46,201 nucleotides of DNA, taken from positions 1 through 46,201 of the forward strand of contig CBEVHI010000001.1 of assembly GCA_965549635.1 (NCBI GenBank), in the 5' to 3' direction. This DNA is from an uncultured bacterium (GTDB lineage Bacteria; Actinomycetota; Acidimicrobiia; Spongiisociales; UBA4744). Below, piece by piece: positions 3,393 to 40,682 of this stretch (positions are counted from its first letter, which is position 1; the number at the start of each line of letters is the position of its first letter). A program made the position numbers and the translations under genes. The notes under the pieces are model-generated. The model saw only the letters and a program-made list of their open reading frames with translations, had not been told where the DNA came from and made no database searches.

Positions 3393-3420
3393 ACCGTACC
3401 TGATACTCCCTACTTCGTAT
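3393..3420 (-). repeat. four tandem heptads, GUA-N4 on the mRNA strand, in the secF-apt intergenic leader; candidate cis-regulatory element
   Basis: Plus strand reads ACCGTAC CTGATAC TCCCTAC TTCGTAT. Minus strand reads ATACGAA GTAGGGA GTATCAG GTACGGT. The array lies 34 nt upstream of the proposed apt GTG. The same heptad type occurs at 35005-35046 and 38304-38392. Confidence 0.55.
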
Positions 3421-3467
3421 TTCGACCCGAAACGCGGCTCGATGCCCTGAAGCACCAATCCATGGCG

Positions 3468-30539: not shown

Positions 30540-30976
30540 TGCGTCCCCATCACGGCCCTGATGATGGACCCATAGCCGGTGCATCGACAGAGGTTGCCCG
30601 CGAGCGCCTCACGGACGTCCGCCTCGCTCGGGTGGGGATTGTGTTCGAGCAGGTTCGCCGCCGACATCACGATCCCCGGAGTGCAGTACCCACACTGTGC
30701 TCCACCGGTCTCCAGCAATGCCTCCTGAACGGGGTGCAACGTGCCTTCGGAGGTGATCCCTTCAATCGTGACGATCTCGGACCCGGCAGCATCGGCGGCC
30801 ATCACGAGACACGAGCACACCGTCACACCGTCCATGAGGACGGTGCACGATCCACACTCACCCTGCTCGCAGGCGTCTTTTGCTCCATACAGCCCGAGTT
30901 CGTCGCGCAGGAGACGCAGCAGACTCTCCGTACCGGCGGCCTCCACCGTGACCGTCTCGCCGTTGATCCGGAGCAT
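30536..30976 (-). CDS. (2Fe-2S)-binding small subunit of the molybdenum hydroxylase
   Basis: MLRINGE...C.QGECGSCTV....V.SC and the second cluster CGYCTPG....C.C.GY. Start re-set to ATG 30976, which forms an ATGA overlap with the FAD subunit stop. The track N-terminus is an Arg-rich artefact. Confidence 0.92.
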   Translation of the reverse strand: MLRINGETVTVEAAGTESLLRLLRDELGLYGAKDACEQGECGSCTVLMDGVTVCSCLVMAADAAGSEIVTIEGITSEGTLHPVQEALLETGGAQCGYCTPGIVMSAANLLEHNPHPSEADVREALAGNLCRCTGYGSIIRAVMGTQ

Positions 30977-31776
30977 CACAGCAGACGCTCCAGGGTTCTG
31001 CGGGCGATGACACCGACAGCGTGCCGCCGGTATTCGGCCGTTGAGCGATGATCGGTGATCGGCTGCGCCGCCTCGGAGACGAGACGCTGGAACTCGTCGA
31101 GCGCGGTAGTTGTCGGATGGGACTCGGCGGAGATCATCTCCTCCGCTGCGTGCGCCCGGATCACCGTCGGAGCCACTGCTCCGAGAGCAACTCGCGTGCG
31201 GCCGTCGTCGTAGCGGACGACGCACGCCGAGACAACGGCAATCACCATGGCGGCGCGTGGGCCGACCTTGGAGAACCCCTGTCTGGGTGGCAGGTCTTCG
31301 GGCAGCTTCACTCCTTCGATGATCTCCCCCGGCTGCAGGCTGGTCTGCTTGACGCCGACGAAGAACTCATTCCATGGCGTCTCTCTGCGTCCAAGGCGTT
31401 TCGAACGGGTGACGATCGAAGCGTCCATCGCTGCGAGGAACGGCAAGGTGTCGCCGGCAGGGCTGCCGGTGGCGATATTGCCGCCGATGGTTCCCGTGTT
31501 GCGGATCTGCGGTGAACCGATGGTTCGTGCTGCCTCTGCCAGTCCGGGCCATGGACTGTTCTCCAATCGCGCGTGGGTGACCCCGGCGCCAATCCAGTGC
31601 TCGGAGAGACCCAGCAGCTCTTCGACTCGACGAAGGGCGACAACCGAGTCTGGGCGTCGGAACCCGAAGTTGATCTCCACCATCAGGTCGGTGCCTCCGG
31701 CCAGACAGATGGCACCCGGGTCCTGCGCAAGCGCGTCGAGTGCTTCGGTGAGCGCCACGGGCGCCACTATCTTCAA
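30976..31776 (-). CDS. FAD-binding (CoxM/XdhB-like) medium subunit of the molybdenum hydroxylase
   Basis: Only the C-terminal ~266 aa of the 679-aa track ORF look like protein: LAGGTDLMVE, IRNTGTIGGNIA and the CO-dehydrogenase flavoprotein C-terminal region. Start proposed at TTG 31776 (LKIVAPV). GTG 31767 is an alternative. Confidence 0.82.
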   Translation of the reverse strand: MKIVAPVALTEALDALAQDPGAICLAGGTDLMVEINFGFRRPDSVVALRRVEELLGLSEHWIGAGVTHARLENSPWPGLAEAARTIGSPQIRNTGTIGGNIATGSPAGDTLPFLAAMDASIVTRSKRLGRRETPWNEFFVGVKQTSLQPGEIIEGVKLPEDLPPRQGFSKVGPRAAMVIAVVSACVVRYDDGRTRVALGAVAPTVIRAHAAEEMISAESHPTTTALDEFQRLVSEAAQPITDHRSTAEYRRHAVGVIARRTLERLL

Positions 31777-31809
31777 CCCAGGTCCCTTTCGATCTACCCT
31801 GCAGGCTAC

Positions 31810-32478
31810 ATGAATATCGACGAGACCCTCGGCAGCTGTGAACTCGAACTGGCGGCAGATCGCGGCCCCAACTTGAGAGCGCTCGGGTTCTGGCGTGCCG
31901 TCGCCGAAGTCAAGCGTCGACCCGAGCTCGCGGCGACCTATGCGGACCGCATTGCGGAGATCGACCGTGCCGCGTTTGCACGCTGGGCGCTCGTCACCGT
32001 CCCGCTCGGCCTCGGCACGACACTGATGATCTTGGGTACCGTGCTCGGTCTTGCGGTCACCTCTGCCGGGTACTTCCTCGACTCCCCTTGGAACGGGCTG
32101 GCGATCCTGATCGGGACGGGCATCCTGCTGGTCCCCACCCACGGGTTGGGCCACCTGATCGTCGGCCGTCTCCTCGGCATCGGCTTCACCGGCTGGTTCA
32201 TCGGCACATGGAAGATGCCCCAACCGGGCGTCAAACTGGACTACCGCTCCTACCTGCGCGCCTCTCCCCGGGCTCGAGCATGGATGCATGCTTCGGGGGC
32301 GATCGTCACCAAACTCATCCCCTTCCTGAACCTGGGTGCGGCCTGGGGTGCCGGCGTTCCAGGGTGGACCATGTGGACGCTCGTGATCCTGGGGGTCGTG
32401 ATGATCTTGACCGACGTTCTGTGGTCGACGAAAGCGTCGGACTGGAAGAAGTTCCGCAGAGAACTCCGCTACGTCTGA
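31810..32478 (+). CDS. hypothetical polytopic membrane protein with an HGLGH motif
   Basis: About 222 aa from ATG 31810. It has several clear hydrophobic helices and natural-looking composition. It is divergent from the hydroxylase operon. The minus-strand 679-aa ORF covering it is Arg/Pro/Gly-rich junk in this stretch. Confidence 0.55.
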   Translation: MNIDETLGSCELELAADRGPNLRALGFWRAVAEVKRRPELAATYADRIAEIDRAAFARWALVTVPLGLGTTLMILGTVLGLAVTSAGYFLDSPWNGLAILIGTGILLVPTHGLGHLIVGRLLGIGFTGWFIGTWKMPQPGVKLDYRSYLRASPRARAWMHASGAIVTKLIPFLNLGAAWGAGVPGWTMWTLVILGVVMILTDVLWSTKASDWKKFRRELRYV

Positions 32479-33464
32479 AGCACCGCGGCGCCGTGCACCC
32501 TGCCGTCTTTGAGATCGACGAGCGCCTGGTTCGCTTCGGCGAGCGGGTACACCTGAATCTGGGTGCGGATCGGTATCTCGGCGGCCAGCCTGAGGAACGC
32601 TCGAGCATCGTCTCTGGTGAAGTTGGCGACGCTGCGAATCTGCCGCTCCAACCAGAGATCGTCGTAGCTGAAGGCGGGCATCTGGTCGAGGTGAATGGCG
32701 TTGATCGCCACGACCCCGCCGCGGTCCAGTGACTTCAAAGCCTCGACGACGACCTGCCCGACCGGGGCAAACGTAACCGCAGCATCCAGAGGTACCGGAG
32801 GTCTCTCCTCGTAGGGACCGGCCCAGACGGCACCAAGTTCCATTGCCCGCCGGCGCTCGATCTGCGATCGAGTCGCAACATAGACGTCGCATCCCCAGTA
32901 CAGGGCGACTTGCAACGCCAACAGGGCCGATGCCCCGAACCCATAGAGTCCAAGTCGGCCCCCCGGCTGAATGCCACTCACCTTCAAGGCGCGGTAGCCG
33001 ATCACACCGCCACACAAGAGCGGCGCGACTTCGAGATCGTCCATGCTGTCGGGCAACGCGAAGGCAAGATCACCGTCGACCACCACACGTTCTGCGTACC
33101 CACCATCCCGGTCCCATCCGGTGAAGATCGCCTCCTCGCACAGGTTCTCCCTTCCGGTGGTACAGAAGCGACAACTGCCGCAGAACCCTCCAAGCCATCC
33201 GACCCCGACACGCTCGCCGGGTGCCCACCCACGGACACCCTCCCCAACTCGGAGCACTCTTCCGACAATCTGATGTCCGGGGATCATCGGAAGCTTGTCC
33301 ATCCCGAGGTCTCCCTCGACCTCCTGCAGATCGGTTCGGCAGACGCCGCAGGCGGCAACCTCCAAGAGCAGCTCTCCCTCGCCAGGAGAGGGGTCGGCGA
33401 CCTCTTGCAACGTCAGCGGCCCCGTGTCGACCGCCGCAGGATCGTGCAGCATCTGTGCGCGCAT
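32469..33464 (-). CDS. zinc-dependent alcohol dehydrogenase family oxidoreductase
   Basis: Contains GVCRTDLQ, GHQIVG and the structural-zinc motif C..C..C......C (GSCRFCTTGRENLC), plus a Rossmann G.GA.A loop. Start chosen at ATG 33464 (MRAQMLHDP). Confidence 0.85.
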   Translation of the reverse strand: MRAQMLHDPAAVDTGPLTLQEVADPSPGEGELLLEVAACGVCRTDLQEVEGDLGMDKLPMIPGHQIVGRVLRVGEGVRGWAPGERVGVGWLGGFCGSCRFCTTGRENLCEEAIFTGWDRDGGYAERVVVDGDLAFALPDSMDDLEVAPLLCGGVIGYRALKVSGIQPGGRLGLYGFGASALLALQVALYWGCDVYVATRSQIERRRAMELGAVWAGPYEERPPVPLDAAVTFAPVGQVVVEALKSLDRGGVVAINAIHLDQMPAFSYDDLWLERQIRSVANFTRDDARAFLRLAAEIPIRTQIQVYPLAEANQALVDLKDGRVHGAAVLQT

Positions 33465-33515: not shown

Positions 33516-34988
33516 TCAGCCCAGCTTGGCCAGAAGCCCCGTCTTCTCGTTGAACGCCTCGATGCGGCGATCCATCTCCCCGACCTCACTCTGGATCGAC
33601 GTCCAGTAGTCGTCCTCATACCACTGCGCCTGGATCTCCTCGTAGGTCTTCCCCTGCTGTTCGACCCAGGTGTAGTACTTGAGGTTGTGGATCCGCTTGC
33701 GTCCCCAATAGTCGAGCTCGACCATCGCGTCCGTGGTCGTCCCCATCAGGTAACGCTCGTAGGCGGTCACGGCGTCATCACGCGTGAACTCACCTCGCTC
33801 CTCGTTGAGCTCGGTCAACCTCGACTGGTACATCTCGACGGAGTCGGTGGCGACGGTCATGACGACGTCATGGCCGTCCATTTCGTTCCACTTGGCGAAC
33901 TTGATCGATGACAGCATGTTGGCGATGCTCGAGATCCCCAACAGTGGCAGCTGCTCGACGAATGCCTCCGGCACGCCTCGCTCGACCAGGTAGTCCTGGC
34001 CGACCGGCTCGTTGAAGAGGCGCAGGAGCTGCATCGTCGCCTCGTCGTCGATGGCGGTGACGAAGTCGGTGTTCTTGGCGTTGTGAATCCACGGCACGTG
34101 CTTGTCGCCGATTCCTTCGATGCGATGTGCACCGAATCCGTTGTCGAGCAACGTGGGACATTGCAGCGCTTCACTGGCAACGATCTTGGACGTCGGATAG
34201 TGCTGCTTCATGTAGTCGCCCGATCCGATGGTTCCCGCGGATCCGGTGGTCAGCGCCACGCCTCGATACCGATCACCGGCGTCCATCACCTGCTCGAGAA
34301 CCTCGACCATGGCCGGGCCGGTGATGGTGTAGTGCCAGAGGTAGTTTCCGAACTCGTCGAACTGGTTGAAGATCACGACGTCTTCTCCGGAAGCCTTCAA
34401 CTCCCAGGTCTTGTCGAAGATCTCCTTGACGTTGCTCTCGGTTCCCGGCGTCGCGATCACTTCCCCGGCGACCGTCGCCAGCCACTCGAAGCGTTCCTTG
34501 CTCATCCCCTCCGGCAGGATCGCCACCGAGTCGCACGCAAGCAGATGCGAGTCGTAGGCCCCGCCTCTGCAGTAGTTCCCCGTGGATGGCCAGACGGCTT
34601 TCTGGCTTGTCGGGTCGAACTGGCCGGTCACGAGCCGTGGCACCAGGCAGCCAAACGCAGCTCCGACCTTGTGCGCACCGGTCGGAAACCACTTGCCGAC
34701 CAGCGAGACGACACGCGCTTGGGTTCCGGTGAGCTCCTTCGGATACTCGATGAAGTTGACCCCTCCGAAACCGCCACCGGTGGAGACCGGTTCGTTCTTC
34801 CATGTGATCCTGAACAGGTTGATCGGGTCGAGATCCCAGAGGCCCACACCCTGCAACCTCTGCTTCACCGCGGCCGGAATCAGACGCGGGTCGCGCTGCT
34901 GTGCGAACGTCGGGATGAGGATGCTGCGCTCGATGGCGCGCTGTACGGCCCGCTCCAGCGGACCTTCGTGGACGGTGAGGTCGATCAT
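33516..34988 (-). CDS. fold-type II (CysK/CBS/TrpB-like) PLP-dependent enzyme with N- and C-terminal extensions; specificity unknown
   Basis: About 490 aa. A candidate PLP lysine sits in PTGAHKVGAA, a phosphate loop in TTGSAGTIGSG, and HRIEGIGDKHVP matches the CysK/CBS (I/V)EGIG motif. ATG 34988 is preceded by GGAGAAGGAA. Confidence 0.7.
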   Translation of the reverse strand: MIDLTVHEGPLERAVQRAIERSILIPTFAQQRDPRLIPAAVKQRLQGVGLWDLDPINLFRITWKNEPVSTGGGFGGVNFIEYPKELTGTQARVVSLVGKWFPTGAHKVGAAFGCLVPRLVTGQFDPTSQKAVWPSTGNYCRGGAYDSHLLACDSVAILPEGMSKERFEWLATVAGEVIATPGTESNVKEIFDKTWELKASGEDVVIFNQFDEFGNYLWHYTITGPAMVEVLEQVMDAGDRYRGVALTTGSAGTIGSGDYMKQHYPTSKIVASEALQCPTLLDNGFGAHRIEGIGDKHVPWIHNAKNTDFVTAIDDEATMQLLRLFNEPVGQDYLVERGVPEAFVEQLPLLGISSIANMLSSIKFAKWNEMDGHDVVMTVATDSVEMYQSRLTELNEERGEFTRDDAVTAYERYLMGTTTDAMVELDYWGRKRIHNLKYYTWVEQQGKTYEEIQAQWYEDDYWTSIQSEVGEMDRRIEAFNEKTGLLAKLG

Positions 34989-35004
34989 TTCCTTCTCCAA
35001 TCAA

Positions 35005-35046
35005 TGCGTGCTTCGTACTTCGTACTTTGTACCTCGTACTTCGTAT
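35005..35046 (-). repeat. five perfect-phase plus one degenerate tandem heptad (GTACGAA type) in the ThrC-like/CysK-like intercistronic region; candidate cis-regulatory element
   Basis: Plus strand reads TGCGTGC TTCGTAC TTCGTAC TTTGTAC CTCGTAC TTCGTAT. The mRNA strand reads AUACGAA GUACGAG GUACAAA GUACGAA GUACGAA GCACGCA. The array ends about 17 nt before the RBS/ATG at 34988. Confidence 0.7.
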
Positions 35047-35066
35047 GGCGATAGCGCCAAGCCGGC

Positions 35067-36299
35067 TCACGGGGCTTCCATCACCGCCTGTACGGCTTCC
35101 AAGGTGGGGGGGATCTCGTACGGAGCGCTGCCTGCGCTGCCCGCTGCTCTCACCGCGGACGCAATGTCCTTCAGACCGCTTCCGGTATTGAGCACGACGA
35201 CCCTGTCATCGGCGGTGAGGAGGCCGAGGTTTTGCGCCTTGATCATGCCTGCGTACGCCGCGGCGCCCGCAGGTTCACCGAACACTCCGGCGGCCCTCGC
35301 CATCGCCGGAATCGCGGCCAGAATCTCTTCGTCTTCGACGGTCACGTAGGCACCGTCCGTCTCGATGACCGCGGCCATGGCCTTGATCCGGTCTCTCGGC
35401 AGGCCGGCGGATATGGAGTCGGCCACGGTCTGCGCCTCGATCGCAGGCTTGGTCAGCACATCCTCACCGGACTCCCAGGCCTGGGCCATGTAGCTGCTGC
35501 CCGTAGCCTGGACGCCGATCAGCCTCGGCATGCGGTCGATCCACCCCAATGCGAGCAGATCCTTGAAGCCTTTGTGGAGTCCGCCGATGATGCAACCGTC
35601 TCCGACGCTCACCAGCACGACACTCGGAACTTCCCAGCCGAGCTGTTCGGCGATCTCGTAGGCCGCCGTCTTCTTGCCTTCGCTCATATAGGGGTTGTAG
35701 GCCGTGTTGCGGTTGTACCAGCCGTACTCGTCTGCGACCTGCAAACACAGCTCGAACGCATCGTCATACGAGCCCTGCACAGTAAACACGGTGGAGCCGA
35801 AGACCAGGAGTTGGGCGATCTTGGCTTCAGGAGCAGAGCGCGGAACGAAGATCACATTCTGGAGACCTACCGAAGCCGACAGCCCACTCAGCGCCGCAGC
35901 GGCATTCCCTGTGGACGCGGTGGTGACAACCTCTGCCCCCTTCTCGCGGGCCTTGACGATGGCAATCGCGCTCGCCCGGTCCTTGAACGACGCCGTCGGT
36001 TCCCTTCCGCCGTCCTTGACCCACAGCCGGGCCAGCCCCGTTGCCTGGATCTCGTACATTGGCGTCCAGCCCACTTTCAGCGGAGGAACGGCCGCGTCGG
36101 CTTCAATCGGCAGAAGCGGCCGGTACCTCCACATGGACCAGTCCGCGCCGAGGTCACCCCTGCCGACACGGATCGCGTCGTAGTCGTAGAGCACATCCAG
36201 GATGCCTTCGTTGCCATGGTCGGGACAGACGTACTCGACCTCGTCGGGCGCGTAGACCTTTCCGCAGATCATGCAGCGCAGACCCGTGACGTGGCTCAT
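35067..36299 (-). CDS. threonine synthase-like PLP-dependent enzyme with an N-terminal zinc ribbon
   Basis: About 410 aa from ATG 36299, which forms an ATGA overlap with the carbamate kinase stop. It has a CMICG...CPDHG ribbon, the PLP lysine motif PTASFKDR and a GNAAAA loop. The layout matches short ThrC enzymes. Confidence 0.85.
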   Translation of the reverse strand: MSHVTGLRCMICGKVYAPDEVEYVCPDHGNEGILDVLYDYDAIRVGRGDLGADWSMWRYRPLLPIEADAAVPPLKVGWTPMYEIQATGLARLWVKDGGREPTASFKDRASAIAIVKAREKGAEVVTTASTGNAAAALSGLSASVGLQNVIFVPRSAPEAKIAQLLVFGSTVFTVQGSYDDAFELCLQVADEYGWYNRNTAYNPYMSEGKKTAAYEIAEQLGWEVPSVVLVSVGDGCIIGGLHKGFKDLLALGWIDRMPRLIGVQATGSSYMAQAWESGEDVLTKPAIEAQTVADSISAGLPRDRIKAMAAVIETDGAYVTVEDEEILAAIPAMARAAGVFGEPAGAAAYAGMIKAQNLGLLTADDRVVVLNTGSGLKDIASAVRAAGSAGSAPYEIPPTLEAVQAVMEAP

Positions 36300-37282
36300 C
36301 GCACGATCCGGGTCCCGGTCTCTCCGGCCACACCGCGTTCGATGTTCTCGGGGTTGGTGATCAGCACTTCCTTGCCACCGGCTTCGAGGTAGGTGATCGC
36401 AGCTTCGATCTTCGGAGCCATGCTGCCCTTGGCAAAGTGGGTACCTTCGGCCAGGTAGCTCTTTGCCTCCTCGAGCGTCAGCCGATCCACCCAGCGTTGC
36501 TCCGGCGTTCCCCAACCGAGCGCCACCTTCTCGACGGCGGTGCTGATCAGGAGCAGGTCGGCATCGAGTTCACCGGCGAGCAAGGCGGAGGCACGATCCT
36601 TGTCGATCACTGCGGGGACACCTCGGAGAGCACCGCTCTCGTCGGCAACCACGGGGATGCCTCCCCCGCCTACGCAGATCACGGCCATACCTTTTGCGAG
36701 CAGATCGCGAATCGCCTCGATTTCCACGATACGTTTGGGCATCGGGGATGCAACGACCCTTCGCCATCCGCGACCGGCGTCTTCCACCACGTTCCAACCG
36801 TCGACCGCGCGCCGCTGTGCGGCTTCTTCGGGCTCCATGAACGATCCGATCGGCTTCGTCGGATGCTCGAAGGCCGGATCGTCGACGGCGACCTCGACCT
36901 GGGTCACGACCGTCGTCACCGTCTTGTCGATGCCGAGACTCAGAAAGTCGTTGTACAGGTTCTGCTGGAGTGCGTACCCGATCGCTCCCTGCGTGTCGGC
37001 ACCACAAGCGTCGAGGGGGACCTCGTGCAGTTCGTGCCTTGCCAGCTCAGAGCGCCGGAGAATGAACCCGACCTGCGGCCCGTTCCCATGGGTGATCGCG
37101 ACATCCCATCCGGCGAGAATGAGTTCGGCGATGTGCTGATCGGTCTCGCCCGCCGCTGCATACTGATCTTGCACCGAGCGGTGCTCGGCATCCTTGATCA
37201 GTGAGTTTCCCCCGATGGCCACGACGGCCAATGGACGTTTGGTGCTGCTCAACGAATCTCGCTTTCTCGGTGCCTGGGGCAC
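36296..37282 (-). CDS. arcC: carbamate kinase
   Basis: 328 aa. Motifs VVAIGGNSL and ITHGNGPQVG and the amino-acid-kinase fold continue to the C-terminal GT.I. GTG start. A slightly shorter N-terminus is possible. Confidence 0.92.
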   Translation of the reverse strand: MPQAPRKRDSLSSTKRPLAVVAIGGNSLIKDAEHRSVQDQYAAAGETDQHIAELILAGWDVAITHGNGPQVGFILRRSELARHELHEVPLDACGADTQGAIGYALQQNLYNDFLSLGIDKTVTTVVTQVEVAVDDPAFEHPTKPIGSFMEPEEAAQRRAVDGWNVVEDAGRGWRRVVASPMPKRIVEIEAIRDLLAKGMAVICVGGGGIPVVADESGALRGVPAVIDKDRASALLAGELDADLLLISTAVEKVALGWGTPEQRWVDRLTLEEAKSYLAEGTHFAKGSMAPKIEAAITYLEAGGKEVLITNPENIERGVAGETGTRIVR

Positions 37283-37288
37283 CGGTTC

Positions 37289-38263
37289 CTACATGGTCAG
37301 GGCCATCACGGCTTTCTGTGCGTGGAGTCGGTTCTCGGCCTGGTCGAAGACGACACTGTGCGGACCATCCACGACGGCGTCGGTGACTTCGACGTTGCGG
37401 TCGGCTGGGAGGGGATGCATGTAGATGGCGTCTTCTGCTGCCAGAGCCATGCGCCGTTCGTCGGTAATCCAATCGGTGTACTTGGAACCGATCTCAGCCG
37501 ACTCCGCTTCGTCGGTCGTCGTCAGCATCGCTCCCCAGCTCTTGGCATACACCACATCGGCGTCGCGGAAGCCGTCATCGAAGTTCTCGAGGATCTCGAA
37601 CGAGCCGTTCGATCTGCGGGCGTTTTCCTCCGCCTGCGCGACGATGTCCGGCATCAGTTTGAACTCGGGGGGGCGGGTGAGGCGAACGTTCATGCCGAAT
37701 CGTGTTGCCAGCAGAATCAAGCTCTGTGGCACGCTCAATGGCTTCTGGTAGCTCGACGCATACGCATAGCTCACGTTGAGCGTGCGACCGCGAGGATCGC
37801 CCTTCTTCTCGATGATCGTCATCATGTCGGCGAGGATCTGATGGGGGTGGTACATCTCGCATTGCATATTCAGCACGGGCACCCTGCTCGCCTCGGCGAC
37901 CGCTCGCTGGTAGGCGTTGCCGACACCCCAGTCGACCTGTCGGATCGCTATGCCGGCGCTGTAGCGGCCGAGGATCTCGCCGATCTCCGTTGCCGTGTCG
38001 CCGTGGCTGATCTGCGTCGTGCGGGACTCCATGAACATCGCATGTCCGCCCAGCTGGGCCATGCCGGCCTCGAAGCTCGCCCTCGTTCGAGTGCTGGAGA
38101 AGAAGAACAGCATCGCCAGCACTTTGTCCCTCAGGTAGGCGTGCGGTTCGCCCAGAGCCTGCTTGCGCTTGAGGTCGAGAGCGACACTCAACACGGTATC
38201 GATCTCTTCCTTGGTCCATTCCTGGGTCGTGATCATGTCCCGACCCTTCAATCCGGTCTGCAT
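37289..38263 (-). CDS. ornithine-carbamoyltransferase-fold enzyme of the acetylornithine-CTase/YgeW-like (non-canonical) type
   Basis: 324 aa. It carries the carbamoyl-phosphate motifs SSTRTR, HPHQ and HPLPA. The ornithine-binding D..(x)SMG motif is replaced by DVVYAKSWGAM. Confidence 0.85.
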   Translation of the reverse strand: MQTGLKGRDMITTQEWTKEEIDTVLSVALDLKRKQALGEPHAYLRDKVLAMLFFFSSTRTRASFEAGMAQLGGHAMFMESRTTQISHGDTATEIGEILGRYSAGIAIRQVDWGVGNAYQRAVAEASRVPVLNMQCEMYHPHQILADMMTIIEKKGDPRGRTLNVSYAYASSYQKPLSVPQSLILLATRFGMNVRLTRPPEFKLMPDIVAQAEENARRSNGSFEILENFDDGFRDADVVYAKSWGAMLTTTDEAESAEIGSKYTDWITDERRMALAAEDAIYMHPLPADRNVEVTDAVVDGPHSVVFDQAENRLHAQKAVMALTM

Positions 38264-38312
38264 GCTTGTGCTCCAGTCCTCTCGAGCTGAGTTTCTCTCA
38301 GTCTTTGATCCT

Positions 38313-38392
38313 CGTACCTGGTACCTCGTACGCGACCATCGTCGCCATCGACCGCGGGGCGGGCCGCACCGAGATACCAGGCACCAGGTACG
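38313..38392 (-). promoter_or_regulatory. structured 5' leader: two GUAC-heptad triplets forming a 19-bp imperfect inverted repeat around a 42-nt GC-rich insert
   Basis: The arms at 38313-38331 (CGTACCTGGTACCTCGTAC) and 38374-38392 (ATACCAGGCACCAGGTACG) pair over 19 positions on the minus-strand RNA: 16 Watson-Crick pairs, two G-U pairs and one mismatch. The insert holds the hairpin GCGAC-CATC-GTCGC (38332-38345). A further hairpin, CTGAG-TTTCT-CTCAG, lies at 38287-38301. Confidence 0.6.
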
Positions 38393-38400
38393 TCTTCTTC

Positions 38401-39354
38401 CTACTCCATCGCGCCCAGTACGAGCGAGAGCAGAGCCATGCGCATGACGACCCCGTTGTACGCCTCCTGCCAGTAGCGGGCGTGCTTCGTCGCATCCACA
38501 TCGGGCGGGAGCTCATCCATGCGTGGCAACGAGTGCAGAATGATGGCATCCGACTTCGCCTTGTCCGCAAGCAGCGCTCTGGTGACTTTGTAGTTGTCCG
38601 GCGTCTGACCGGTCTCGCCTGCTCGCTCGTCGCGGCCCTTGGTGTAGTCGGCCTGAACCACCGGCTCCATGTAGATCACGTCGGCTTCACCGATGACATC
38701 GCTGATGTGCTCGGCGGTCCTCACGAAGAGGTTCTGTTCGGCGAGTTCGGCCTTGAAGTCGTCGGTGAGTGACATCTCCGGCGGGGCGACGGAGATCATC
38801 TGGGCGTCGAACTGCGTCAGCGCGTAGCCGAGCGAGTGCATGGTGCGCATGCGCATGTCGCCGATCGCCACGAAGGTCAGGCCGTCGATCGTCCCCACTT
38901 CGGTCAGCACCGTGTAGAGGTCGGTGAGGATCTGCGTCGGGTGCTCGCCCCATCCGTCACCCGCGTTGATGACCGGCACACTGGACCACTTCGCGGCCTC
39001 GTGCGGTGCGCCCTGCTGGAAGTGACGCATGACGATCGCATCGCCGTAGTACTCCAGCATGTGCACGGTGTCCTTGATCGACTCCTGGTAGAAGTCGCCG
39101 GCGCGCGTCATCTTGGCATCCGAGAAGCCCAGCACGTGACCACCGAGACGATGCATCGCAGCCTCGTGGGCCATCCGGGTGCGTGTCGACGGCTGGTAGA
39201 AGGCGGTCAGCAGCGTCTTGTCGGCCAGCAGGTCCGTATTGCGCCGTTCCCGAGCGATCGGTTCCAGTTCGGAAGCCGTCTCGAACACATGCTCGAACTC
39301 GGCCCTCTCAAACCCTTTGAGGGACAGAATGTCCCGCCCGGCGAAACTTCTCAT
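38401..39354 (-). CDS. aspartate-carbamoyltransferase-fold paralog (catalytic-chain-like); second substrate uncertain
   Basis: About 317 aa from ATG 39354, with AAGGAG 6 nt upstream. It carries PSTRTR, MRH, HPTQ and HSLPR and is collinear with class B PyrB. No pyrimidine-pathway neighbours are present. Confidence 0.82.
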   Translation of the reverse strand: MRSFAGRDILSLKGFERAEFEHVFETASELEPIARERRNTDLLADKTLLTAFYQPSTRTRMAHEAAMHRLGGHVLGFSDAKMTRAGDFYQESIKDTVHMLEYYGDAIVMRHFQQGAPHEAAKWSSVPVINAGDGWGEHPTQILTDLYTVLTEVGTIDGLTFVAIGDMRMRTMHSLGYALTQFDAQMISVAPPEMSLTDDFKAELAEQNLFVRTAEHISDVIGEADVIYMEPVVQADYTKGRDERAGETGQTPDNYKVTRALLADKAKSDAIILHSLPRMDELPPDVDATKHARYWQEAYNGVVMRMALLSLVLGAME

Positions 39355-39512
39355 GCGCTTCTCCTTCTCCTCGAAGCCGCGCCTCGACCCGAGACGCAGG
39401 TGTGCAGATCGACCCAAGCCTATCTTCTTTTGACCTCCACTGAACCGCGACCGACGACTGGTGTGGCCATCGACCACAAGACCCGCCTCAGGCCGGGTAG
39501 GCTGACCCGAGC

Positions 39513-40682
39513 GTGGCGAGCGAAAGCACATCAACAGGAGCGGCCAGAGGCTTTCGCGCAGTCGCCGGGTCTCTCTTTCCGATCCTCGCCGTTGTCGCCG
39601 CCCTGCTCCTCGGAGCAGTGATGCTCCTGATCCTCGGTGCCAACCCGGTGACCGGCTTCGGCGCGATGATCGATGGAGCGTTCGGAAGTCTGCGCGCCCT
39701 CTCCGACACGGCAGCGAAGGCCGTTCCGCTGCTCCTCGTCGGCGTCGGAATCACGATCGCCTTCCGAGCGAACGTGATCAACATCGGCGGTGAGGGACAG
39801 ATCATCCTCGGCGCACTGTTCGGAACAGCACTCGCCTTGTTGATGCCCAACCTCCCGGCGTGGCTGCTTCTGCCCGGCGTGCTCTTCGCCGGTTTCGTCG
39901 GAGGCGCCCTGTGGGGGGCGATTCCCGGAGCCTTGAAGGCGTACTTCAACGTCAACGAGATTCTGAGCACGATCATGCTCAACATCGTCGCCGTTCAAGG
40001 CATGAACTTCCTTCTCCGCGGGCCGATGATGGACCCTGCAGAGATCGAGGCCGGCAGCCGCATCCCTCAGACCACCAGACTCGCGGAGGCAGCCGACCTG
40101 CCGGTCCTCATCAAGGGCACGCGACTGAACGGCGGAGTGATCATCGCGGTCGTCGCTGCCGTCGTCGTCTACTTCTTCCTCTGGCGGATGACCTCGGGTT
40201 TCCGGATTCGCGCCGTTGGGTTCAATCCCCACGCCTCCCGCTACGCGGGCATTCACGTGCAACGATCGGTCGTCCTCGCCCTCACCCTCAGCGGGGCGCT
40301 GTGCGGCCTCGCCGGCGTGGTTCTGGTCTTCGGCAGCGAGTCTCACCGGTTCGTCACCGATGGGTCCTCGACAGGGTTCACCGGCAGTGCCGGGTTCAAC
40401 GGCATCGTCGCCGCGCTCTTCGGCGGCCTCCATCCCCTCGGAACGATCCCTGCGTCGTTCCTCTTCGGGGCGCTGCTGGTCGGGGCGAACAAACTGCAGC
40501 GCGCCGTGCAAGTCCCTGCAGCCCTCATCATTGCGTTGAACGGGCTTGTCGTCGTGTTCGTCGTCAGTAGCGCCATCTGGAAGCGGCGCCTCGATCAACG
40601 GTTCCTCTTGAGGGCCGCGACCGCCGACCAGGTCGAAGCCGATGAGGAGGCCACGCAGTCAGGAGCCCCTCCCGATGGGTGA
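39513..40682 (+). CDS. ABC transporter permease (BMP/nucleoside-type, YufP/NupB-like)
   Basis: 389 aa and polytopic. The N-terminal pattern ..ILAVVAALLLGAVMLLILGANP and a central INIGGEGQ motif are typical of the branched sugar/nucleoside permease family. GTG start. Confidence 0.85.
   Translation: MASESTSTGAARGFRAVAGSLFPILAVVAALLLGAVMLLILGANPVTGFGAMIDGAFGSLRALSDTAAKAVPLLLVGVGITIAFRANVINIGGEGQIILGALFGTALALLMPNLPAWLLLPGVLFAGFVGGALWGAIPGALKAYFNVNEILSTIMLNIVAVQGMNFLLRGPMMDPAEIEAGSRIPQTTRLAEAADLPVLIKGTRLNGGVIIAVVAAVVVYFFLWRMTSGFRIRAVGFNPHASRYAGIHVQRSVVLALTLSGALCGLAGVVLVFGSESHRFVTDGSSTGFTGSAGFNGIVAALFGGLHPLGTIPASFLFGALLVGANKLQRAVQVPAALIIALNGLVVVFVVSSAIWKRRLDQRFLLRAATADQVEADEEATQSGAPPDG

Follow-up and report, generated by a model that had tools for sequence, protein, structure and literature searches.

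We report that the six tandem 7-nt units between the ThrC-like and CysK-like genes of a high-GC Acidimicrobiia-like actinobacterium constitute an intergenic heptanucleotide simple-sequence repeat of the LSSR(5-11)/STRR class, and that they do not serve the operon in which they lie as a dedicated operator or RNA-protein site. Specifically, the array consists of head-to-tail 7-nt copies well above chance at an intergenic site, heptamers lead at many unrelated loci (a statement that rests on the 46,201-nt stretch of DNA analysed here, referred to below as the window, on 80 related loci and on at least 120 metagenome loci), and relatives vary in steps of whole units. The array most likely originated by slippage, and we consider it probable that it is a slippage-born intercistronic spacer whose only likely effect is to turn stop/start coupling into Shine-Dalgarno (SD)-driven initiation on an open leader.

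Gene identities were assigned using Pfam and NCBIfam, and the coordinates are collected in Table 1. The operon runs on the minus strand from the ATCase-like gene through the OTCase-like, carbamate kinase, ThrC-like and CysK-like genes to a Zn-dependent alcohol dehydrogenase (Zn-ADH) gene and genes for xanthine-dehydrogenase (XDH)-type subunits, while a PnrA/BMP-type ABC transporter is transcribed divergently relative to it. The ATG of the ThrC-like gene overlaps the stop of the carbamate kinase gene (ATGA). The ThrC-like protein scored 298.6 bits against NF006050, slightly below the cut-off of 303, and the CysK-like protein, a distant CysK relative, falls well short of all NCBIfam cysteine-synthase cut-offs (83 bits against 351). 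Members of the latter protein's family from Chloroflexota, Acidimicrobiia and Desulfobacterota share 66-75% identity, and more than 200 columns are invariant among 22 sequences. The closest genome record by this protein is an uncultured Acidimicrobiia MAG (L001; 87%). We note that the CysK-like protein is thus a strongly conserved enzyme and that the cluster resembles one for nucleobase catabolism.

Table 1. Coordinates of the array, its units, neighbouring signals and genes in the window, and of the corresponding features in related loci.
Feature	Position	Strand	Basis or description
Heptad array	35005-35046	-	Direct reading, TRF, pattern statistics, autocorrelation scan
Unit 1, AUACGAA	35046-35040	-	Direct reading (mRNA sense)
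Unit 2, GUACGAG	35039-35033	-	Direct reading (mRNA sense)
Unit 3, GUACAAA	35032-35026	-	Direct reading (mRNA sense)
Unit 4, GUACGAA	35025-35019	-	Direct reading (mRNA sense)
Unit 5, GUACGAA	35018-35012	-	Direct reading (mRNA sense)
Unit 6, GCACGCA	35011-35005	-	Direct reading (mRNA sense)
Stop TGA of ThrC-like gene	35069-35067	-	Direct reading
Small hairpin GGCG-CUAU-CGCC	35047-35058	-	Right after ThrC-like stop; MFE and centroid folds
SD GGAGAAGGA of CysK-like gene	34990-34998	-	Direct reading; unpaired in predicted centroid fold
ATG of CysK-like gene	34988-34986	-	16 nt past last heptad unit
Hairpin, both arms heptad arrays	38310-38388	-	TRF and fold
Degenerate array AUACGAA GUAGGGA GUAUCAG GUACGGU	3395-3424	-	Between secF stop and apt start
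ATCase-like gene	38401-39534 (ORF)	-	Pfam/NCBIfam
OTCase-like gene	37289-38263	-	Pfam/NCBIfam
Carbamate kinase gene	36296-37282	-	Pfam/NCBIfam
ThrC-like PALP gene, 410 aa	35067-36299	-	NF006050
CysK-like PALP gene, 490 aa, N-terminus MIDLT	33516-34988	-	Pfam/NCBIfam
Conserved 221-224 aa gene, L081	8698-9372	-
Conserved 221-224 aa gene, window	about 31.6-32.7 kb	+	Equivalent position
L081-85 junction			84-nt spacer, eight diverged heptads
L220 junction			85-nt spacer, heptads degenerate only
L213 junction			7-nt gap
L086, L088/L001, L215/216, L217 junction			Stop/start overlap GTGA, without spacer
Other-unit arrays in L002, L006, L016, L017, L022, L032	directly 5' of CysK-like gene		Period 7-8
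TATAAT-like box and GTTGTCTGACAAC in L044, L051, L057, L059, L061, L063, L065, L067, L070, L071, L072, L079	about 20-60 nt before CysK-like start

Two further features of the gene neighbourhood were observed. All Acidimicrobiia-type relatives have, between the Zn-ADH gene and the gene for the XDH FAD subunit, a conserved, divergently oriented gene of 221-224 aa that gave no Pfam match; the 679-aa ORF called in the window at 30976-33015 is probably an over-extended call that spans it. In many Anaerolineales, a TATAAT-like box followed by the palindrome GTTGTCTGACAAC is present directly 5' of the CysK-like gene, and these sequences suggest a probable promoter with the operator of a putative repressor, such that the CysK-like gene would head its own transcription unit in those Anaerolineales.

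Direct reading of the junction agrees with the description given in the initial annotation, i.e. six heptads between the two genes, GUAC unchanged in four consecutive units (units 2-5), the small hairpin after the ThrC-like stop, and the SD and ATG of the CysK-like gene shortly 3' of the array. The array is non-coding and lies wholly between the ThrC-like TGA and the CysK-like ATG. In the mRNA, the first part of the junction, from the TGA to the array, reads GCCGGCUU-GGCGCUAUCGCC and is followed by the six heptads, and the second part, up to the CysK-like start, reads UUGAUU-GGAGAAGGA-A-AUG. TRF reported the array at 35007-35045 as the top-scoring tandem repeat of the window (period 7, 5.6 copies, 84% matches, score 57), and a lag-autocorrelation scan of the 46 kb returned it as the sole strong short-period repeat. 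The pattern TACN4TACN4TAC, for which shuffles gave 0.00 expected matches, occurs at the array, at 38.31-38.33 kb and once at 3.40 kb, and nowhere else in the window; allowing up to two mismatches, GTACGARGTACGAR was matched seven times against 0.52 expected. The array is therefore real and well beyond chance.

The 100-nt junction folded no better than its shuffles (z +1.03). Apart from weak GUAC:GUAC pairing and the small GGCG/CGCC hairpin, no structure is predicted, and the centroid fold leaves the SD accessible, so that the array region is, as modelled, essentially unstructured. The terminator scan found no intrinsic terminator on the gene strand around the array, and the GGCG-CUAU-CGCC hairpin does not qualify as one because it has no U-tract. 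No promoter was detected on the gene strand in 34700-35400 by a scan limited to sigma-70-like sites, and Rfam gave no match in the whole window at the gathering score and none in 34900-35150 at E <= 5. The array has no inverted partner within 400 nt, in agreement with the initial annotation, and for this reason we rejected a hairpin/attenuator model for this site, unlike for the site at 38.3 kb.

Several other candidates were likewise discarded. A Rho-utilisation (rut) site was rejected because the array mRNA is G-rich and C-poor, and Hfq (ARN)n and CsrA GGA sites were rejected since both motifs are absent from the array. A MITE or REP-like mobile element was set aside, there being neither terminal inverted repeats nor target duplications and the unit content varying by site. 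The frame past the ThrC-like stop stays open for 21 sense codons until the next UGA; a small ORF or read-through peptide over the array was rejected, having neither a supporting SD nor conservation.

The absence of promoter signals also bears on a DNA-level function. The omega repressor operators of pSM19035, with heptads (WATCACW)n, and the MetJ metbox arrays, (AGACGTCT)n, are built from contiguous 7-8 bp repeats, overlap promoters and are accompanied by a ribbon-helix-helix repressor gene. A cooperative repressor of this kind, binding the contiguous heptads and acting on an internal CysK-like promoter, would be consistent with the contiguous units, with the occurrence of both direct and inverted heptad arrays in the lineage, and with the palindromic GTAC core, which fits a symmetric dimer on each unit. 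Yet the array is located in an intercistronic leader of a tightly packed operon, with 16 nt between its last unit and the ATG, no promoter-like hexamers are present in or around it, most relatives lack it, units elsewhere are non-palindromic, and no partner gene was found among the larger ORFs of the window. We regard a DNA operator as very unlikely.

The window carries the GUAC-type unit at three sites, all in sense orientation. Between the ATCase-like and OTCase-like genes, a 79-nt hairpin (dG -62.9 kcal/mol, z -4.35) has heptad arrays in both arms, GUACCUG GUGCCUG GUAUCUC in the 5' arm and GUACGAG GUACCAG GUACGAG in the 3' arm; as it has no U-tract, a role in processing or stability is more likely than one as a terminator. 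The third site is a degenerate array 5' of the start of apt, the adenine phosphoribosyltransferase gene.

To compare the same junction in close relatives, we used seven species-level relatives with the same operon (L081, L086, L088/L001, L213, L215/216, L217 and L220). Their CysK-like proteins are 83-90% identical to that of the window, and the concatenated CysK-like and ThrC-like proteins 78-88%; by concatenate identity the window groups with L081, and L086, L088, L215 and L217 form another group, with L213 alone and L220 most distant. The array is absent in five of the seven, and these keep the ThrC-like/CysK-like pair; the AGACUGGAGA-type SD of the CysK-like gene is kept in all relatives, with or without array. 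The junction units of L081 read GCACCGU GCCUCAG GCACCAA GCACGAA GUACCAG GUACGAG ACACCUC UUACCCC. The gene pair and the operon thus work without the array, which, judging from these genomes, is dispensable for the operon.

At other junctions of the same operon the relatives differ as well. L220 has a clean direct GUACCAG array (five units) just 5' of the OTCase-like SD and a GUACCUG array (3.5 units) in opposite orientation after the CysK-like stop, and it carries a GUAC-type unit at three junctions of the operon. In L088, L215 and L213, the hairpin at the ATCase/OTCase junction is formed from different heptads (GGUUCUC, GACUGAA), and heptads are absent at this junction in L081.

These data bear on the suggestion that the array is a specific RNA-binding site, on which a TRAP- or HutP-like oligomer would recognise UAC triplets spaced 7 nt apart and thereby control the distal genes of a purine/nucleobase regulon (CysK-like, OTCase-like and apt). 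TRAP of Bacillus binds 11 (G/U)AG triplets with 2-3 nt spacers, and HutP binds UAG triplets with 4-nt spacers, its recognition geometry being UAG-N4. In common with these systems, the array repeats a short triplet at a constant, short interval along an mRNA leader, the 7-nt period of UAC-N4 equals that of the HutP half-site, and all three GUAC-type sites of the window are sense-oriented and 5' of nucleobase-related genes. The differences are that the triplet is UAC and not UAG/GAG, that 5-6 units in a single run take the place of 3+3 or 11, and that the array excludes the SD, is without a terminator/antiterminator, and is not conserved together with the regulated genes. Moreover, the array is missing from the junction in most close relatives, L081 has no heptads at its ATCase/OTCase junction, no candidate gene for a cognate HutP/TRAP-type binding protein was found in the 46-kb window, and, as described below, GTAC heptad repeats also adjoin unrelated genes in unrelated taxa and their UAC/GUAC core is not protected. 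A specific RNA-binding array is accordingly very unlikely.

TRF was applied to the surroundings of the CysK-like gene in 80 GTDB species, about 0.96 Mb in all (score >= 40). Period 7 accounted for 20 of the 36 non-coding-like arrays and was the leading non-coding tandem repeat in these 80 loci; arrays with a period that is a multiple of three fall inside ORFs. The heptad units were unrelated between sites, even inside one locus, with TTTTACG, AAACAGT, AAACTTA, ATTACGC, AACGTTA, ACGATTT and GGGGATC as examples, and the usual order in the operons was stop codon, array, SD and ATG. Inverted heptad pairs that form hairpins were also found, e.g. ATACGAG/CTCGTAT in L010 and GCGAACA/GCTGTCA in L001. 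The latter (L001/L088:1005-1083) consists of 6.6 copies of GCGAACA followed by 3.4 copies of GCTGTCA and makes a heptad-built hairpin between convergent genes, which places the class at 3' ends too, beyond leaders. Arrays with a period of 7-8 and other units occur directly 5' of the CysK-like gene in at least six other loci, a number that roughly matches the expectation from the background array density.

A metagenome scan with GTACNARGTACNARGTAC for GTACNAR-type arrays, requiring three units, returned at least 120 loci, a count that does not express enrichment over chance as a rough estimate allows hundreds of chance three-unit matches; the arrays count as evidence because most of them extend to at least five units. 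Among the matches listed, the GC content ranged between 0.33 and 0.71, the median array length was 5 units (90 of 147 arrays with at least 5, the longest with 18), many arrays had inverted partners, and the adjoining genes included those for ThiG, a 23S-IVS protein, a serpin, an acyl-CoA dehydrogenase, a formiminotransferase and DUF4159. The mismatch rate per position to the array consensus, calculated from unascertained flank units among the matches listed, was flat (0.18-0.32), and GUAC is therefore not a protected core. Among the matches listed there was a weak bias towards the sense orientation, both upstream of an SD and ORF (10 sense against 2, small numbers) and after stops (34 against 19); the orientation test is underpowered with only 12 of 146 arrays having a clear downstream SD and ORF, because many sit at contig ends.

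The initial annotation had interpreted the heptads purely as a binding array, with recognition either at the RNA level or through a wrapped oligomer. This interpretation conflicts both with the relatives that lack the array and keep the same gene pair and operon, and with the GTACNAR arrays beside unrelated genes of unrelated organisms; it is further weakened by the flank units, which lack position-specific conservation, and by the quite different units that other genomes have at the same junction. Hence, of the first reading, the description and the remark on a microsatellite stand, and a dedicated binding array for a purine-type operon does not.

A less specific role on the RNA is unlikely rather than very unlikely. 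In such a scheme the array would be a generic single-strand platform on which an abundant OB-fold protein that covers ~7 nt (a cold-shock protein or ribosomal protein S1) assembles and holds the leader open, or would serve as a ribosome standby site, raising CysK-like translation with little regard to unit sequence. This would be consistent with the predicted fold, in which the unstructured array abuts a free SD, with the many different units that fill the stop-to-SD gap in many genomes, and with the weak sense bias of the metagenome arrays among the matches listed. MacGregor suggested translational control via S1, Csp or CsrA for the TAACTGA arrays found just 5' of start codons in Beggiatoaceae and pointed out that each heptamer is bound by one CspB molecule (PMC4679880). 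On the other hand, arrays also occur in the opposite orientation (after the CysK-like stop of L220), as hairpins and between convergent genes (L001), and relatives manage without the array.

The initial annotation also raised the possibility of a 7-nt microsatellite, i.e. a slippage locus. At the ATCase/OTCase junction, the arrays of L215 (2716-2760) and L216 differ by exactly one 7-nt unit (GACTGAT) in genomes that are 99.88% identical over 13.5 kb, which is direct evidence of unit-step indels in the heptad class. In contrast, the arrays of the L081 strain group are identical in five independent assemblies from different samples that are 0.03-0.2% divergent, and their array is thus not hypermutable at this divergence. 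The suggestion holds in that the array is a 7-nt simple-sequence repeat and that the class shifts by whole units, as in the L215/L216 sister array.

Within populations, frequent gain and loss of 7-nt units could in principle switch or tune CysK-like expression by altering the spacing or the leader. Phase-variable 7-bp repeats are present in the hmw1A/hmw2A promoters of H. influenzae. Together with the TTTTGAT heptamer repeats of the V. cholerae ctxAB promoter (10.1101/2021.05.14.444153), they are precedents for tandem heptamers 5' of a gene whose copy number may vary by strain, and the L215/L216 difference and the 7-nt indels that distinguish Cyanothece strains (PMC4679880) point in the same direction. 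Those promoters, however, drive surface or virulence genes of host-adapted pathogens, whereas the bacterium here is environmental, the operon that contains the array is metabolic, and the array homologue is invariant in five assemblies. Furthermore, slippage is slowed by the imperfection of the units, bet-hedging is unlikely to target a metabolic enzyme, and the array is upstream of the SD, so that unit number leaves the SD-to-ATG spacing and the reading frame unaltered. A contingency or tuning locus is for these reasons quite improbable.

With respect to known repeats, the array shares with the LSSR(5-11)/STRR class the contiguous 7-nt units (imperfect, and usually present in 2 to 8 copies), the intergenic location, often in the stop-to-start gap, the sometimes inverted pairs forming hairpins, and a presence and length that vary among close relatives in 7-nt indel steps. 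According to the accounts of Mrazek 2007 given in PMC4679880 and PMC4692102, in most prokaryotic genomes heptanucleotides outnumber every other category of long SSR, three Actinobacteria are among the genomes richest in long SSRs, and a polymerase that holds about 7 nt of DNA was proposed to favour slippage. Intergenic heptamer arrays before start codons have been described for Beggiatoaceae, Cyanobacteria, Bacteroidetes and Xanthomonas (PMC4679880, PMC4692102, 10.1101/2022.06.06.494920). For the intergenic Calothrix STRR, Nostoc GGGGAYT and Xanthomonas GGGAATC repeats, array length differs among closely related genomes, and some of the arrays are paired in inverted orientation (PMC4692102). 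In a Nostoc preprint, deletion of heptamer repeats had modest effects on a reporter, and no mechanism was given. What sets the present arrays apart is the unit, GTACGAA/GTACSAG with its palindromic GTAC, and the hosts, which are a high-GC Acidimicrobiia-like actinobacterium and Chloroflexota; our literature search found no description of heptamer repeats of this class in Chloroflexota or Acidimicrobiia. Also, the SD is kept downstream of the array, and most BOGUAY repeat regions are without SD.

A further comparison concerns actinobacterial promoters. SARP heptamers are spacer-separated (11-bp period) and adjoin the -35 region, and the units here are instead contiguous (7-bp period) and away from a promoter. 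SARP-type heptameric direct repeats in Streptomyces promoters (PMC5930380) and the array nevertheless have in common that they are actinobacterial and composed of heptamer units in direct orientation.

One feature is incompletely explained by a simple-sequence repeat, namely the GUAC unit shared by the three window sites and the three junctions of L220. This sharing exceeds that at the Chloroflexota loci and could be due to a lineage-specific binding factor or to copying between sites, and on account of it we keep a small probability for such a factor. In its widest form, to which we give little credence, GUAC heptad arrays would be a lineage-wide post-transcriptional code in Acidimicrobiia-like actinobacteria, perhaps wider, along which an RNA-binding protein polymerises. 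A conserved single-strand RNA-binding protein may then occupy sense arrays in intercistronic leaders in a 7-nt register and may thereby control the relative translation of distal operon genes (CysK-like, OTCase-like and apt), with inverted arrays acting as competitor hairpins.

In the spacer interpretation that we prefer, replication slippage in 7-nt steps would have created the array and would continue to remodel it within the transcribed spacer of a polycistronic operon. The array would open an 80-nt, essentially unstructured gap from the ThrC-like stop to the CysK-like SD, and CysK-like translation would then have to begin de novo, driven by the SD of an accessible leader; in the array-less relatives with the GTGA stop/start overlap, translation would be coupled. 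Any effect is expected to be modest and independent of unit sequence.

Taken together, the array matters little for this operon, which can do without it, and an annotation as a regulator site is not warranted. The natural series of overlapping genes, direct array, inverted-array hairpin and one-unit variants could be used to test translational coupling against spacer effects. Finally, heptamers predominate among the non-coding tandem repeats at the operon junctions of uncultured Chloroflexota and Acidimicrobiia, a pattern that parallels that of Cyanobacteria, Beggiatoaceae and Xanthomonas, and the array described here adds a GTACGAA-type example to an already known repeat class.
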